64,000 nt of DNA from an uncultured Clostridium sp. (GTDB lineage Bacteria; Bacillota; Clostridia; TANB77; CAG-508): contig CASVZF010000003.1 in the NCBI GenBank assembly GCA_949467015.1, positions 3,921 through 67,920 on the forward strand. Reading direction: 5' to 3'. How positions within the stretch are numbered: position 1 is the stretch's first letter; every line of letters starts with the position of its first letter. A program made the translations under genes and the position numbers. The notes beneath the pieces are model-generated. The model was not told the DNA's origin and made no database searches. It saw nothing but the letters and a program-made list of their open reading frames with translations. This document shows, piece by piece, positions 38,159 to 49,156 of this stretch.

Positions 38159-38437
38159 TTATAAAATAATACAAATTAATCCGCCACTACCTTCATTTAC
38201 AATTCTTTCTAAAGTTTCCTGTAATTTAATTTGAGCATCCTCGGGCATTTTAGAGAGTTTGGTTTGTAATCCTTCATTTACGAGTTCATGTAAACTTTTT
38301 CCAAATATATTAGATTCCCAAATCTGTTTAGGATCATTTTCAAAACCTGAAAGTAAGTAATTTACTAATTCTTCTGACTGCTTTTCCGATCCAACAATAG
38401 GAGAGACCTCTGTTTCTACATTAGTTTTGATTAAATG
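38159..38437 (-). CDS. spoIVA: Stage IV sporulation protein A, C-terminal segment (gene split by mobile element)
   Basis: (H)LIKTNVETEVSPIVGSEKQSEELVNYL...LERIVNEGSGGLICIIL matches the conserved SpoIVA C-terminus. No credible start of its own (the TTG is an ORF-caller artefact). Confidence 0.88.
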   Translation of the reverse strand, partial: HLIKTNVETEVSPIVGSEKQSEELVNYLLSGFENDPKQIWESNIFGKSLHELVNEGLQTKLSKMPEDAQIKLQETLERIVNEGSGGLICIIL

Positions 38438-40071
38438 TATTGCTTGGGACAAACGGAAGTGTTTTTTCTATCTCTATTTATGCGATATTCCAGAACATCA
38501 TCATTAAATTTTATATGAACTTTTACATCAATAACATTTTTTTCCTCTGTTTTAAATACTTCAATTTTATCAAGTAAGCTGTCTATAATTGCATTATTAA
38601 AACCTTCTTCAAAGTCAAGTTCTTTTGCTATAACTTTTCTTAATGCTTTAATATTTTTGTCTATTTCTTCATTTGCAAGTTCTTGTTCTTTTAAGTCTGC
38701 AATTTTAATTTTCAAGCTATCTATTTCATCATTAAACATATTATTACGTCTTTCAAATTCATTATCTGTTATTTTTCCAGCAATAGACAAATCAAGTAGC
38801 TTGTCTTTCCTTTTTAAAATTTCATTTATACTTACTTCACATTTTGCAATATCTTGTGTAATGGTAGAACTTTGAGATAGGGAAGTATACATCTTATATA
38901 ACTCGTTAATGATTTCAGCTTTATTTGTAACTATTTCATCATAGCATTGTTTCATAATTTCATTAAGTTCAGTAGTATAAATAGTAGGCATATTACAAAA
39001 ATCTTTTCCCTTTTCCAAATATTCTTTACATTGCCACAATTCTTTATTGCCACTAGGGTATTTATATAATTTTCTTTGATAACTGCATTTATGTTCGCTA
39101 CATATAATTTTACCAGAATAAGTATATTTATTATTATAACTGATATGATTATTTGTTAATTTTGAACTACGTTTTGCTAAAATTTTATTTGCTTTTTCCC
39201 ATAATTCTTCGCTAACAATAGGGGGGACGTTTTCTTCATCTTTATACATAACCCAGTCTTTCTCATCAAAAACTTTTCTGTCTTTACTTCTATAATCGTA
39301 TTTATGTGTTTTTCTTCCACAATAGTAACCTTTATATTTTGGGTTTACTAAAATATTTTTGATAGTAGAGAACGAAAAGGGGTTGCCTTCTGTGTTCAAA
39401 TACCCTCTTGATGTTAATTCAGTTGCTATCGCACGAATTCCCATATTTTCAGTAGCATATAATTCAAAAATAAGACGGACAACTTCTGCTTGTTCTTCAT
39501 CTATAACAAGTTTTCCATTATCTTTTTTATAACCCCATATTTTATTATTACCAAGAACAACACCATTTTCAATAGACCTTTTAAAGCCGAAATTAACACG
39601 TTCAGAGAGCTTACGAACTTCATCTTGAGCAATACTAGACATTATAGTAAGTCTTAATTCACTATCTGGAAGTAAAGTATTAATATTATCAGCTTGAAAA
39701 AATACACCTACACCACTATGTAATAGTTCTTGTGTATATTGTATACTATCTAACGTATTACGAGAAAAACGACTAATTTCTTTTGTGATGATGAAGTCAA
39801 ACTTTCCTAATTTAGCATCATCTATCATTTTTAAAAAACTATCTCGCTTTGATACACTTGTACCAGAAATACCTTCATCAATATAGCCTTCTACATAAGT
39901 CCAATTTTTATTATTTTTAATGAAATCACTATAATAATTTATTTGATTTTGTAAAGAATTAAGTTGCTCATCTTTTTCAGTAGACACACGAGCATAATAG
40001 GTTACTCTTATAGGTAAGTCATAAATTGATACCCCTTTACTTAATTCTGCTCTCATAGTATACAAGTCCAT
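38431..40071 (-). CDS. Large serine recombinase
   Basis: 546 aa. Has an N-terminal resolvase catalytic domain (YYARVSTEKDEQLNSLQNQ), a recombinase domain, Cys-rich zinc ribbon segments and a C-terminal coiled coil. Its stop codon lies exactly at the left junction. Confidence 0.9.
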   Translation of the reverse strand: MDLYTMRAELSKGVSIYDLPIRVTYYARVSTEKDEQLNSLQNQINYYSDFIKNNKNWTYVEGYIDEGISGTSVSKRDSFLKMIDDAKLGKFDFIITKEISRFSRNTLDSIQYTQELLHSGVGVFFQADNINTLLPDSELRLTIMSSIAQDEVRKLSERVNFGFKRSIENGVVLGNNKIWGYKKDNGKLVIDEEQAEVVRLIFELYATENMGIRAIATELTSRGYLNTEGNPFSFSTIKNILVNPKYKGYYCGRKTHKYDYRSKDRKVFDEKDWVMYKDEENVPPIVSEELWEKANKILAKRSSKLTNNHISYNNKYTYSGKIICSEHKCSYQRKLYKYPSGNKELWQCKEYLEKGKDFCNMPTIYTTELNEIMKQCYDEIVTNKAEIINELYKMYTSLSQSSTITQDIAKCEVSINEILKRKDKLLDLSIAGKITDNEFERRNNMFNDEIDSLKIKIADLKEQELANEEIDKNIKALRKVIAKELDFEEGFNNAIIDSLLDKIEVFKTEEKNVIDVKVHIKFNDDVLEYRINRDRKNTSVCPKQYI

Positions 40072-40143
40072 TTTTAATTTCCCCCTTATGATTAAAACAT
40101 ATATATATTAAAATATAATGATATGTAACAACTGATATGTTTT

Positions 40144-40172
40144 ATTATAATAGACAACCTATTATTTGTCAA
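40144..40172 (-). promoter_or_regulatory. SigA-type consensus promoter of the recombinase gene
   Basis: On the minus strand: TTGACA, a 17-nt spacer, then TATAAT (complement of 40167-40172 and 40144-40149). Confidence 0.5.
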
Positions 40173-40209
40173 TAAAAAAGCCTACAAGATGATATATTTC
40201 TTGTAAGCT
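40173..40209 (-). terminator. Intrinsic terminator after the rep operon
   Basis: Minus strand agcttacaag...cttgtaggct followed by a T-run. Confidence 0.6.
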
Positions 40210-40221
40210 ATGTATGTGTAT

Positions 40222-40374
40222 TTAAGATTTTATTATAAGTTCCTTCGCCTTTGTATACATTTCTTCAGTTATGTAGCCTTTTTCAAAAAGTGAGTGATTT
40301 ATAGACAATTTCACTTCTATTAAAAAGGCATTTTTCTGTTTCTGCTTTTCTGTTTGTTCTTGCTGTTTAATCAT
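40222..40374 (-). CDS. Small protein with SHOCT-like C-terminal motif (50 aa; not in ORF track)
   Basis: MIKQQEQTEKQKQKNAFLIEVKLSINHSLFEKGYITEEMYTKAKELIIKS. The RBS is weak. Confidence 0.35.
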   Translation of the reverse strand: MIKQQEQTEKQKQKNAFLIEVKLSINHSLFEKGYITEEMYTKAKELIIKS

Positions 40375-40433
40375 CTAAAATCACCAACCTTTCATATTTA
40401 AGACTATGATAAGCAAGTCCAAATTAGAACAAA

Positions 40434-47125: not shown

Positions 47126-47359
47126 ATGAAAAAATTAAAGTTTGATAAGAATATTTATAATACTATTAGAAAAAACATCAAAAAATATAGACGTATGAGA
47201 AAGATGACATCTGCTGAACTTGCTGAACTGGTAGACCTATCACACGATTTTATAAGACAAATAGAAAGTGAAAAGACAGCTTATAATTTTTCAGTTGAAA
47301 CATTTTATAAAATCTCTGTTGCTCTTGATGTTTCTCTTGATATGCTAATAAAAAAGTAG
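47126..47359 (+). CDS. XRE-family HTH regulator (element-borne)
   Basis: 77 aa; HTH_3 pattern IKKYRRMRKMTSAELAELVDLSHDFIRQIESEK. Confidence 0.8.
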   Translation: MKKLKFDKNIYNTIRKNIKKYRRMRKMTSAELAELVDLSHDFIRQIESEKTAYNFSVETFYKISVALDVSLDMLIKK

Positions 47360-47372
47360 AAATAGTAATATT

Positions 47373-47507
47373 TTAATTCTCATCTTTTTTATGTTTAAAA
47401 TAATAGTATATTCCATAAATTGATAACCCCAAAAGAAAAATGCCCATTAATACCCAAAATGTCTTTTTTTCTTCTGGGGACATATTCATATAAGTAAAAG
47501 TGTACAT
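47373..47507 (-). CDS. Small single-TM protein (44 aa; not in ORF track)
   Basis: Strong RBS aaaggagga. Sequence MYTFTYMNMSPEEKKTFWVLMGIFLLGLSIYGIYYYFKHKKDEN. Confidence 0.45.
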   Translation of the reverse strand: MYTFTYMNMSPEEKKTFWVLMGIFLLGLSIYGIYYYFKHKKDEN

Positions 47508-47628
47508 TTTTTCCTCCTTTATAAAGTATTTTGTAGAACAAATTTATTTTAACATTTTGCAATACAAAAAGCAATGCTTATTTTTAATATTTTTTGCATT
47601 ACTATATATAATATAGGAGGTAATGCAA

Positions 47629-47814
47629 ATGTCATTTCAAATTAAACCAAACAAAAAAGAAACAGAAAATAAAACAGTAAGATTTCCAATTACATTAATT
47701 GATAGAATAGAGAAAGCTATTAGAAATAAAGATGTAACATTTTCGAGGTTTGTAATTCAAGCTTGTGAATATGCTCTTGATAATATGAAAGATATTAAAA
47801 AAGATACAAAATAA
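47629..47814 (+). CDS. Ribbon-helix-helix protein (element-borne; candidate regulator/RDF)
   Basis: TVRFPITLIDRIEKAI...FVIQACEYALDN. Paralogue of the ORF at 2062-2250. Second ATG chosen for RBS spacing. Confidence 0.6.
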   Translation: MSFQIKPNKKETENKTVRFPITLIDRIEKAIRNKDVTFSRFVIQACEYALDNMKDIKKDTK

Positions 47815-47953
47815 GTAAATTAAAACACCGTCTTTTATAAACGGTGCTTTTTCTTTTTATACAGCAATGTAAAGCTGTACGTTGTATGTTATATCTATTG
47901 GAATATTGTTTTTCTTTCGTGGGAATTTTATACTTCTGTTTGATACGTTCAAT

Positions 47954-49156
47954 ATGGATAGAAGGTGCAGTTGCTTTTAGTTTTACACCAAATCTAGATC
48001 CTTGTTTTACCATTTCTGGTTCTTCTAAAATTAGTTCATCAATAGAAGGTGTTACAATTCCATATCCTTTACGATCTACTTCATCTAAGGCATAAGCTAT
48101 TTTATCATATTTCTTTTTAGTAGAAGAAAGCTCAGAAATAATGCTGAATAAATCGCCTTCATTCGAAACGTTAACTCCAGTAATTTCAGAAAGAACACTG
48201 TAAAATAATTCTTCTTTTAAGGTTATTTCAATATTAACATTACCAGAACCTAGTTGAATGTCAGTAATGGAAGTACTTGTAATGATTTCTGTTTGTTTAA
48301 TAGAATTGGCACAATTTGAAACATCTTTTAATACATTAACTTTTTCAAATGCTTCTTTAATTTCTTTATATAGTTCATTTTTTAAAGGATGAGTAAAATT
48401 CAAACCATCGATCCATCTAGGAAATTTGATTTTGATTTGTTCTACTGGAAATTCATATAGAATTTTTGAGAACATATTGTTGATATCATCAATTGTTAAA
48501 GTTTCACAGTTTGTTGGAACAACAGTAGTTCCATATTTTTCACTTAATGTATTGGCTAATTCTTGTGTATAATTAGAGTTAGGTTCAGCTGAATTTAAAA
48601 CAATAATAAAAGGCTTATTTAAAGCTTTTAATTCAGAAACGACTCTTTCTTCTGCTTTAATATAATCTTCTCTTGGAATGTCCGTAACAGTTCCATCTGT
48701 AGTAACCAATATTCCAATCGTAGAATGTTCTTCAATTACTTTTTTCGTGCCTATTTCAGCTGCTGTTTCAAAAGGTATTTCCTCAGAAGACCAAGGTGTT
48801 TTTACCATTCTAGGCATATCATCTTCCAAATAACCAATAGCGTTATCCACCAAATAGCCGACACAGTCAACCAATCTTGTTTTAAACTTTAAATTGTTGT
48901 CTAAAGTAATTTCAATAGCTTCATTTGGAACAAATTTTGGCTCTGTTGTCATAATGGTTTTTCCGCCTGCACTTTGTGGCAGTTCATCTTTTGCTCTTTC
49001 CTTCTTGTATTCATTATTAATGTTAGGAATTACTAGTAAATCCATAAACTTTTTGATAAAAGTAGATTTTCCAGTTCGTACTGGACCAACAACTCCTACA
49101 TAAATATCACCATCCGTTCTTTTTGCGATGTCTTGATACAATCTTGTATTTTCCAT
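47954..49156 (-). CDS. spoIVA: Stage IV sporulation protein A, N-terminal segment (gene split by mobile element)
   Basis: The MENTRLYQDIAKRTDGDIYVGVVGPVRTGKSTFIKKFM Walker A region is diagnostic of SpoIVA. Homology ends at ...KLKATAPSIH. The ORF-track extension to 47795 is read-through into the element. Confidence 0.9.

Follow-up and report, generated by a model that had tools for sequence, protein, structure and literature searches.

In the 64-kb window that we analyzed (the whole stretch of DNA, 64,000 nucleotides from an uncultured Clostridium sp.), the gene for SpoIVA, the protein that starts spore-coat assembly, is cut in two by a 9,519-bp mobile element that carries a large serine recombinase (LSR) gene at its edge. 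Both spoIVA fragments lie on the minus strand. The features of the locus are as follows.

49211..49239 (-): sigma-E-type promoter-like site of spoIVA, TCATATT-N14-CATATATA
47954..49156 (-): spoIVA 5' fragment, codons 1-401 (ATPase domain plus most of the middle domain), ending ...KATAPSIH
47932..47976 (-): attL, consisting of the spoIVA arm, the crossover CA (47956-47955) and the element arm T-ATTG-AACGTAT-CAAACAGAAGT
38437..47955 (-): the inserted element, 9,519 bp with one copy of the CA core counted
47795..47953 (-): out-of-frame 52-codon tail that the 5' fragment reads into inside the element, with a terminator-like hairpin (47822-47850)
47623..47814 (+): 63-aa YlcI/YnfO-like small protein at the element end
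47126..47359 (+): XRE/Cro-type HTH regulator
45525..47042 (-): 505-aa surface protein with a C-terminal NEPKTG sorting signal and membrane anchor (cargo)
44653..45435 (-): class B sortase (cargo)
43683..44588 (+): 301-aa ORF of unknown function (cargo)
41151..43520 (-): six conserved backbone ORFs of unknown function (60, 90, 112, 222, 115 and 110 aa)
40434..41086 (-): rolling-circle Rep-like gene in three overlapping reading frames (fragmented)
40401..40429 (-): mother-cell-type promoter-like site upstream of o50, TTCTAAT-N14-CATAGTCT
40222..40374 (-): small 50-aa gene (o50), the candidate recombination directionality factor (RDF)
40144..40172 (-): perfect sigma-A promoter consensus, TTGACA-17-TATAAT, upstream of the recombinase gene
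38431..40071 (-): large serine recombinase, 546 aa, whose last codons and stop (TAA) lie across attR in spoIVA sequence
38415..38460 (-): attR, consisting of the element arm ACTTCCGTTTG-TCCCAAG-CAAT-A, the crossover CA (38437-38436) and the spoIVA arm TTTAATCAAAAC...
38159..38434 (-): spoIVA 3' fragment, codons 402-492 plus stop (end of the middle domain plus the C-terminal domain)

The split reported in the preliminary description is real. Pfam searches assigned the ORF at 47795-49156 (-) to SpoIVA_ATPase (positions 1-237; PF09547, E 5e-120) and SpoIVA_middle (1-168 of 179; PF20438, E 4e-60), and the ORF at 38159-38452 (-) to SpoIVA_middle (160-179) and SpoIVA_C (1-76 of 76; PF20439, E 4e-39). 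The reading frame leaves homology after His401 (last base 47954) and resumes at Leu402 (first base 38434). The joined product of 492 aa is colinear, without gaps, with 80 of 80 intact spoIVA genes fetched from related genomes. Furthermore, exactly this 492-aa sequence is encoded as one uninterrupted gene on at least 23 contigs of the same species. The flanks of those contigs are 99.7-100% identical to the window, and their alignments break at 47954/38437 with a 3-bp CAT overlap, the only sequence that the empty sites share with both junctions. A sister species (locus L001) also has an empty site. The attB of the conspecific contigs, ...GCACCTTCTATCCATTTAATCAAAACTAATG..., is the sequence that the preliminary description had predicted, and its claims of a seamless split, of fragments on the same strand and of a serine recombinase at the edge likewise hold. 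One minor correction is needed: the 3' fragment proper starts at 38434, and 38435-38437 is the duplicated CAT core. The ORF joined in silico equals the natural uninterrupted gene of the conspecific contigs at 100% amino-acid identity.

The recombinase has a Resolvase domain (PF00239, E 2e-29) and a Recombinase domain (PF07508, E 2e-25). Its match to Zn_ribbon_recom is weak (22.9 bits against a cut-off of 25.3), although this domain is listed for many relatives. NCBIfam similarity to CcrB, CcrC and XisF was below cut-off. The N-terminal domain matches PDB 3g13 (E 3e-42), and gamma-delta resolvase was also hit. The catalytic motif YARVS(30)T, with R28-V29-S30-T31, is invariant in an alignment of 12 diverse family members. 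Together, attL and attR rebuild a 48-bp dyad attP, ACTTCnGTTTG-N7-CAAT-A-[CA]-T-ATTG-N7-CAAACAGAAGT, around a CA in the His401 codon. The attL element arm is conserved in four related loci (L081, L085, L089 and L254). In four loci the element lies in the opposite orientation, and the core dinucleotide next to the recombinase gene is TG instead of CA, which is what LSR polarity rules predict.

The remaining gene content is not phage-like. PHROG searches hit only the Rep-like gene, as a rolling-circle initiator (with partial Pfam PF23343 hits). The relatives L081 and L091 have one frame break fewer in this gene. Pfam and NCBIfam searches returned the sortase (TIGR03064, 174 bits against a cut-off of 153.75; Pfam Sortase), a weak hit of the surface protein to the EF0750 sortase-dependent family, the HTH regulator (HTH_19 and HTH_3) and the 63-aa protein (NF041551, 33.6 bits against a cut-off of 30), which is conserved in L081 and L091. 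No phage structural, packaging or lysis genes were found, and no IMG/VR contig carries a recombinase more than 58% identical. The six backbone ORFs gave no Pfam, PHROG or NCBIfam hits, but the 90-, 112- and 222-aa ORFs keep the same three-ORF layout in L081 at about 39% identity. The 301-aa ORF also gave no family hits, and has homologues in L091 and L093. No relaxase, coupling protein or T4SS was recognized alongside the integrase and the fragmented Rep-like gene. We initially considered an FtsK-like gene at 41444-42717, but this got no support from the Pfam, PHROG and NCBIfam searches.

We find that related elements occupy the same codon of spoIVA in many Clostridia. About 40 of 47 non-redundant recombinases at least 54% identical to that of the window abut spoIVA at codon 401, in hosts whose SpoIVA is only 50-85% identical. 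These include Ruminiclostridium cellulolyticum H10, R. papyrosolvens DSM 2782 and R. sufflavum DSM 19573. Recombinases of the next clade (48-52% identity) sit in sigK, so those are true skin elements.

Sequence conservation indicates that the function of the split gene has been retained. The spoIVA dN/dS is 0.043 against L001, and the 3' fragment is 100% identical in amino acids at a dS of 0.67. In Ruminiclostridium, the same junction persists across three species, with recombinase divergence (90% and 81% identity) tracking that of the flanking UvrA (93% and 84%), and the detached 3' fragment has a dN/dS of about 0.002. Ruminiclostridium species are described as spore-forming (PMC10701907), and R. 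cellulolyticum H10, which carries the split, makes heat-resistant spores at 35.7% (PMC3936895). No full-length SpoIVA from the H10 or DSM 2782 chromosomes appears among the best 120 hits. Note that the evidence that carriers form spores comes from relatives of the uncultured window organism. Within the species of the window, the element is a minority variant, present on 4 contigs and absent from at least 23, with flanks up to 100% identical. This insertion may therefore be recent, and selection may not yet have tested it. In addition, the germinant-receptor gene gerAA in the window is fragmented species-wide, which leaves some doubt about how well this lineage sporulates. The window holds no second spoIVA, but a copy elsewhere in this genome cannot be excluded.

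The sigma-A promoter of the recombinase gene matches the consensus at 12 of 12 positions. Homologues of o50 lie just upstream of the recombinase in 17 of 32 spoIVA-type loci, across different cargo, and are missing from the other 15. The o50 family has weak SHOCT-like similarity only (SHOCT_2 was hit by 14 of 21 members, below threshold), with no significant match in Pfam, PHROG or NCBIfam searches. A CATAnnnT box is present in 17 of 26 unique homologous regions upstream of this small gene, against 4.0 +/- 1.8 in shuffles. This resembles the mother-cell -10 consensus (Saujet 2013; PMC3789822), although the -35 region of the window's site fits the sigma-E consensus only partly (5 of 7). The site upstream of spoIVA is likewise a consensus match only, using the motif classes of the same study. 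In C. difficile, spoIVA is a sigma-E target (PMC5025042).

We therefore interpret the insertion as a spoIVA-intervening element, a 9.5-kb non-phage integrative element that a dedicated LSR inserted into the CA of the His401 codon. In this view, the recombinase would be made constitutively from its sigma-A promoter and, alone, could only integrate (attP × attB). After asymmetric division, a mother-cell sigma factor would transcribe a small directionality factor, for which o50 is the best candidate. We predict sigma-E, because spoIVA is an early sigma-E gene. Recombinase plus factor would then recombine attL × attR, so that the element leaves as a circle and the 492-codon spoIVA is restored under its own sigma-E-type promoter. 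SpoIVA could then be made, allowing the coat basement layer and cortex to form, while the forespore chromosome would keep the element, which would thus be inherited through the spore. Our analysis establishes the precise split, the att architecture, the empty site in conspecifics, the family-wide target specificity, the sigK-targeting sister clade and purifying selection on the split gene. Excision itself, its timing and cell specificity, the identity of the directionality factor and the function of the promoters are inferred, and no excised circle or attP junction was found in any fetched locus or in IMG/VR. The skin-like interpretation of the preliminary description is supported by homology and context, with excision in the mother cell remaining an inference for this organism, albeit one strongly supported for the family. 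We consider this explanation likely overall. The impression in the preliminary description that spoIVA is not an established target also agrees with our literature search, which found no paper naming spoIVA as a target.

The best surviving alternative, which we consider unlikely, is that this is an ordinary integrative mobilizable element that happens to use a conserved spoIVA sequence as attB. Here, insertion would simply knock out sporulation in carriers, and excision would be sporadic or linked to transfer. The polymorphism and apparent recency of the insertion, the vegetative sigma-A promoter, the Rep-like and adhesin/sortase cargo typical of mobile islands, and the decay of gerAA are consistent with this. 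However, the persistence of the junction in spore-forming Ruminiclostridium, the very strong purifying selection on the detached 3' fragment, the sigK skin elements of the sister clade and the conserved mother-cell-type promoter box all speak against it. A further alternative, which we consider very unlikely, is that the split is tolerated because the 401-residue N-terminal part is sufficient, because the two polypeptides associate, or because another spoIVA copy supplies the function. The N-terminal fragment ORF is indeed intact with its own promoter-like site, the R. papyrosolvens protein annotated as SpoIVA (Cpap_0109) is detected by proteomics under sporulation-inducing conditions, and the window covers only 64 kb of the genome. 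Nevertheless, the 3' fragment has no evident start codon or promoter context of its own and overlaps the recombinase stop, the C-terminal domain is needed for SpoIVA localization in B. subtilis, no full-length SpoIVA from the complete H10 or DSM 2782 chromosomes appears among the best 120 homologues, and the window has no second copy. Finally, although the window comes from a metagenome-assembled genome (GCA_948636005.1), a chimeric contig is refuted by the identical junction in independent assemblies (L244 and L245). The identical junction in complete genomes of cultured strains (CP001348.1 and CP119677.1) and the symmetric, conserved att arms also speak against it.

Among known systems, the element resembles skin(Cd), the sigK-intervening element of Clostridioides difficile (recombinase CD1231 and RDF CD1234; Serrano et al. 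2016, PMC5025042), in having an LSR gene at the element edge and in lying within a mother-cell sporulation gene whose ORF would be restored by excision. The layout is also the same: in C. difficile the recombinase is constitutive and the RDF is sigma-E dependent, and here the recombinase has a sigma-A promoter and a separate small gene has a mother-cell-type promoter-like site. It differs in that the target is an early sigma-E structural/morphogenetic ATPase, not a late sigma factor, the cargo is not phage-like, excision is inferred rather than demonstrated, and the candidate directionality factor, proposed from sequence alone, is unrelated by name or family. The gin element in gerE of Bacillus cereus ATCC 10987 (Abe et al. 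2017, PMC5595907) is likewise a non-phage island that interrupts a mother-cell sporulation gene and uses a serine recombinase. However, gin has three recombinases and sits in a late regulator gene, whereas the element here has one and belongs to a large family found in the same gene across distant Clostridia. SPbeta in spsM (SprA/SprB), phi3T-type phages in kamA, vfbin in spoVFB, vrin in spoVR and yin in yabG (PMC4191935, PMC6957869, PMC10747680) are active or defective prophages in Bacilli or in C. botulinum, and none targets spoIVA. They follow the same logic, with a modular int-plus-rdf unit inside a mother-cell gene that can be exchanged between elements. Here, L093 has window-like cargo but a recombinase only 84% identical. 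For R. cellulolyticum H10, Galperin 2012 only noted spoIVA as 'omitted in annotation', and a later survey (Galperin et al. 2022 preprint, 10.1101/2022.02.25.481979) lists sigK and spoIIID (and cotJC in Laceyella) as interrupted, but not spoIVA. The skin-like elements in sigK and spoIIID are of the same class and in the same host strain as one of the spoIVA insertions described here, and H10 therefore has at least three split sporulation genes.

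The split of spoIVA noted in the preliminary description is real, precise and polymorphic within the species. On the minus strand, homology to SpoIVA ends at His401 (base 47954) and resumes at Leu402 (base 38434), leaving a gap of 9,519 bp. The joined 492-aa protein is colinear, without gaps, with 80 of 80 intact spoIVA genes from related uncultured gut Clostridia, the best match being 97% identical. A sister species (locus L001, about 90.6% DNA identity over 20 kb of synteny) has a clean empty site. Furthermore, the exact joined sequence (protein P0245) exists as a single gene on at least 23 contigs, which have the same neighboring genes and are 99.7-100% identical to the window on both sides. 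Their alignments stop at 47954 and 38437 with a 3-bp CAT overlap. The insertion, on contig CAPIYT010000005.1 of GCA_948636005.1, is also present in a second MAG and in a separate ENA assembly. The window features discussed here are as follows.

47795-49156, minus strand: ORF matching SpoIVA_ATPase (1-237) and SpoIVA_middle (1-168 of 179).
38159-38452, minus strand: ORF matching the last 20 positions of the middle domain and all of SpoIVA_C.
40172->40144, minus strand: 12/12 sigma-A consensus upstream of the recombinase gene.
40222-40374, minus strand: small 50-aa gene (o50), the candidate directionality factor.
40434-41086, minus strand: Rep-like gene in overlapping frames.
41444-42717: three ORFs, probably separate genes.
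32690-34500, minus strand: germinant-receptor gene gerAA, broken into three reading frames (about 184, 287 and 147 codons).
30389-32697: gerAB and gerAC, which look intact.
35739-38118, plus strand: P-type cation ATPase, split into two ORFs (376 and 402 aa) by a frame change near 36870-36910.
29901-30091 and 53076-53257: two copies of an intergenic repeat, in opposite orientation.

Reading the minus strand, attL is ...CCTTCTATC-CA-T ATTG AACGTAT CAAACAGAAGT and attR is ACTTCCGTTTG TCCCAAG CAAT A-CA-TTTAATCAAAAC.... Joining the element-side arms gives a 48-bp site with arms of 11+7+4 bases. The arms are inverted repeats around ACAT, so the center is the CA of the His401 codon. The same arms are found in elements from hosts whose SpoIVA is only 52-61% identical, and in Ruminiclostridium cellulolyticum. 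In four termite-gut loci, the element lies in the opposite orientation in spoIVA, and there the dinucleotide next to the recombinase-proximal arm is TG, the reverse complement. For serine integrases, the central dinucleotide alone sets polarity (compare PMC3783163), and this natural variant therefore supports CA as the crossover. The recombinase stop codon (TAA here, TGA where the host has His-Met) is supplied by spoIVA sequence just past the crossover, and the integrated form is therefore 546-547 aa in nearly all relatives. We also asked whether attB is an unusually conserved stretch of spoIVA at the DNA level. It is not: its 42-nt stretch ranks 1105 of 1436, and only the CA of the His codon is invariant. 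Rfam and tRNA scans of the window returned nothing, so the element is not tRNA-associated.

No excised form was found. A regular-expression scan of all fetched loci for a P arm followed by a P' arm returned nothing, and an exact-pattern scan of IMG/VR gave 0 hits. Two recombinase variants of 561 aa (P0006 and P0010) were examined as possible attP-form proteins, but their extra length does not come from the 3' (att) end. The P0006 gene ends directly at SpoIVA_C and the P0010 contig ends 23 bases after the gene, so both are integrated or uninformative. On a 3.4-kb termite-gut contig (L100:1098-2830), a recombinase 64% identical to that of the window is followed by ACTTCTGTTTG TTCCGAAG CATACATAAATTATGTATCAAAT... 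and not by spoIVA, which could be an attP-like or secondary site.

The 546-aa recombinase has Resolvase and Recombinase domains, a weak zinc-ribbon match and the YARVS(30)T catalytic motif. A protein search found a dense family of about 547-aa proteins at 62-99% identity. Genomic context was surveyed by look-ups, one metagenome scan and one IMG/VR scan, and junctions were classified with tblastn and motif checks. Of 47 non-redundant junctions with recombinase identity of 54% or more and enough flank, about 40 abut spoIVA at codon 401, 36 in the orientation of the window and four inverted. None of the 75 non-redundant junctions below 54% identity shows the codon-401 spoIVA junction. Recombinases at 48-52% identity (L143, L146, L147, L167, L173 and L176, mostly from human-gut metagenomes) flank, in both orientations, fragments that score best as SigK and are split near model position 67; they are therefore a sister clade of true skin elements. 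Among the junctions in the orientation of the window, several (L089/090, L094, L096, L099, L109 and L154) show only about 10 codons of spoIVA (HMIRADIETEV). These are followed by a second element whose recombinase is 44-49% identical and which joins spoIVA at codon 408/409. Thus, a second large serine recombinase (LSR) lineage uses a site seven codons downstream, and genes can be doubly occupied by tandem insertions. In L089 (1649-19091), this second recombinase is fused in frame to SpoIVA residues 390-492.

The same split occurs in cultured strains. Ruminiclostridium papyrosolvens DSM 2782 (CP119677.1) has spoIVA split by a 5.3-kb element carrying AgrB, an AgrD-like peptide gene and a histidine kinase, and R. 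sufflavum DSM 19573 has the recombinase-spoIVA 3' junction with different cargo. R. cellulolyticum H10 (CP001348.1; L254:10001-17353) has a 5.9-kb version, at about 2,488,600-2,494,500 of the chromosome, with the Agr quorum-sensing cassette plus a cellulosomal dockerin-GH53 gene, and its 3' spoIVA fragment is not called as a gene. The downstream neighbors (YuaJ and UvrA) are shared by all three. Recombinase identity is 90% for H10 against R. papyrosolvens and 81% for R. papyrosolvens against R. sufflavum, which tracks UvrA (93% and 84%). This fits inheritance of the recombinase-att unit from their common ancestor, with cargo turnover. Between the two element-bearing species, the detached 3' fragment has dN 0.045 with saturated dS, and the recombinase has dN/dS 0.04. 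The genus is described as spore-forming (PMC10701907), and wild-type H10 gave 35.7 +/- 7.3% survival after 80 C for 10 min, which was abolished in a spo0A mutant (PMC3936895). Among the best 120 homologs of the joined R. papyrosolvens SpoIVA, the only entry from the 4.07-Mb chromosome is the 422-aa N-terminal fragment, and no 492-aa protein is listed from the H10 or DSM 2782 chromosomes. SpoIVA is needed for heat-resistant spores in C. sporogenes (PMC11076785). So the H10 gene must be rejoined in sporulating cells, or some undetected substitute exists.

Regulation is inferred from sequence alone. Directly upstream of the recombinase gene is a 12/12 sigma-A consensus (TTGACA-17-TATAAT), preceded by a hairpin that ends the previous gene. 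That gene, o50, is the only element gene besides the recombinase shared among elements with unrelated cargo. An HMM finds it upstream of the recombinase in 17 of 32 spoIVA-type loci and misses the subclades at 58-63% identity. No library gave a significant hit that would name it, and SHOCT_2 matches only weakly. Upstream of it, 17 of 26 unique loci carry CATAnnnT a short distance before the ribosome-binding site, whereas shuffles give 4.0 +/- 1.8 with a maximum of 12. A (T/A)(T/C)CTAA-like element usually lies 15 nt upstream of that box. The spoIVA gene itself has TCATATT-N14-CATATATA upstream. Because spoIVA is an early sigma-E gene, we predict sigma-E control of the putative factor.

There are no phage genes in the element. 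It carries a class B sortase (above the NCBIfam cut-off), a 505-aa protein ending in NEPKTG plus a membrane anchor, an XRE regulator, a YlcI/YnfO-like protein, a fragmented rolling-circle Rep-like gene and several unknown ORFs. The first frame break of the Rep-like gene is shared with the related elements L081, L091, L092 and L239; the second was not seen in those relatives, which have one frame break fewer. We first suspected that ORFs 41444-42717 were a frameshifted FtsK-like gene. However, this has no Pfam, PHROG or NCBIfam support, and the three-ORF layout is conserved at 39% identity in L081, so they are probably real separate genes. The relatives L081-84 and L091 share the backbone but add Ig-like surface proteins. 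In another element (L093:1-6602), the cargo ORFs are 95-100% identical to those of the window, but the small gene and the recombinase are only 78% and 84% identical. This points to exchange of the recombination unit between elements, as proposed for such units in PMC6957869.

In the uncultured organism studied here, the element is a minority allele and the flanks can be 100% identical, so the insertion, or its loss, is recent. This shows that the system is active. Note that purifying selection on this particular split gene therefore cannot be demonstrated, as the dN/dS of 0.043 against L001 covers mostly pre-insertion history. No second spoIVA was found within the 64-kb window. Sequencing error was considered for the frame breaks in gerAA and the P-type ATPase and rejected. 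The same split gene calls occur in every conspecific contig, and the gerAA breaks occur at the same positions in L001, whereas locus L002 has an intact 467-codon gene. The ATPase split is a fixed feature of the species, and the ATPase region of L001 also shows two ORFs, of different lengths. The intergenic repeat, of about 190 bp, is built from nested inverted repeats; its two copies are 89% identical over 136 bp. It is also present in L001, has no Rfam or tRNA match and looks MITE-like.

We conclude that this is a precisely defined spoIVA-intervening element, and the skin-like reading offered in the preliminary description is supported. The split, its recombination sites and its recurrence at codon 401 are read directly from sequence, whereas excision during sporulation, the role of o50 and promoter function are inferred. 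We consider the developmental-excision mechanism likely. A broader reading is possible but tentative: that an old, dedicated lineage of serine-recombinase units has colonized one codon of spoIVA across Clostridia, from termite-gut and human-gut lineages to cellulolytic Ruminiclostridium, with a second LSR lineage at the downstream site, and that some hosts have inherited it vertically since before speciation. In those hosts, production of the universal coat-morphogenetic ATPase would depend on a DNA rearrangement at the sigma-E stage, and the element would act as an early developmental gate or timer. Where it is polymorphic, as in this gut species, it would act as a heritable modifier of sporulation efficiency. 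In gut commensals, such a presence/absence polymorphism could alter sporulation, and with it possibly transmission. The finding also supplies genetically tractable test strains (H10 and DSM 2782) and a set of natural LSR/att pairs with a defined 48-bp attP, including natural core-flipped variants.

Full-text searches found no paper describing a split spoIVA, although an earlier mention cannot be excluded; as far as we can find, the family is large and previously undescribed, within the known class of recombinase-excised sporulation-gene interruptions. Reviews and primary papers list sigK, spsM, spoVFB, spoVR, gerE, kamA, spoVK, yabG, cotJC and spoIIID as targets. Galperin 2012 lists spoIVA only as 'omitted in annotation' in C. 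cellulolyticum H10, which the split explains, and survey pipelines could likewise misread split spoIVA fragments as loss of the gene. The 2022 survey lists sigK and spoIIID, but not spoIVA, as interrupted in H10, which therefore carries three split sporulation genes. The inferred regulatory layout copies that of C. difficile skin, where the recombinase CD1231 is constitutive from a sigma-A promoter and the RDF CD1234 is sigma-E/SpoIIID dependent (PMC5025042). The known intervening elements mostly sit in late regulators or late-acting, non-essential genes. SpoIVA, in contrast, is the one coat morphogenetic protein conserved in all endospore formers (Galperin 2012 and 2022) and acts early, during engulfment, so a rearrangement that must happen before it can be made would add a new early control point to clostridial sporulation.
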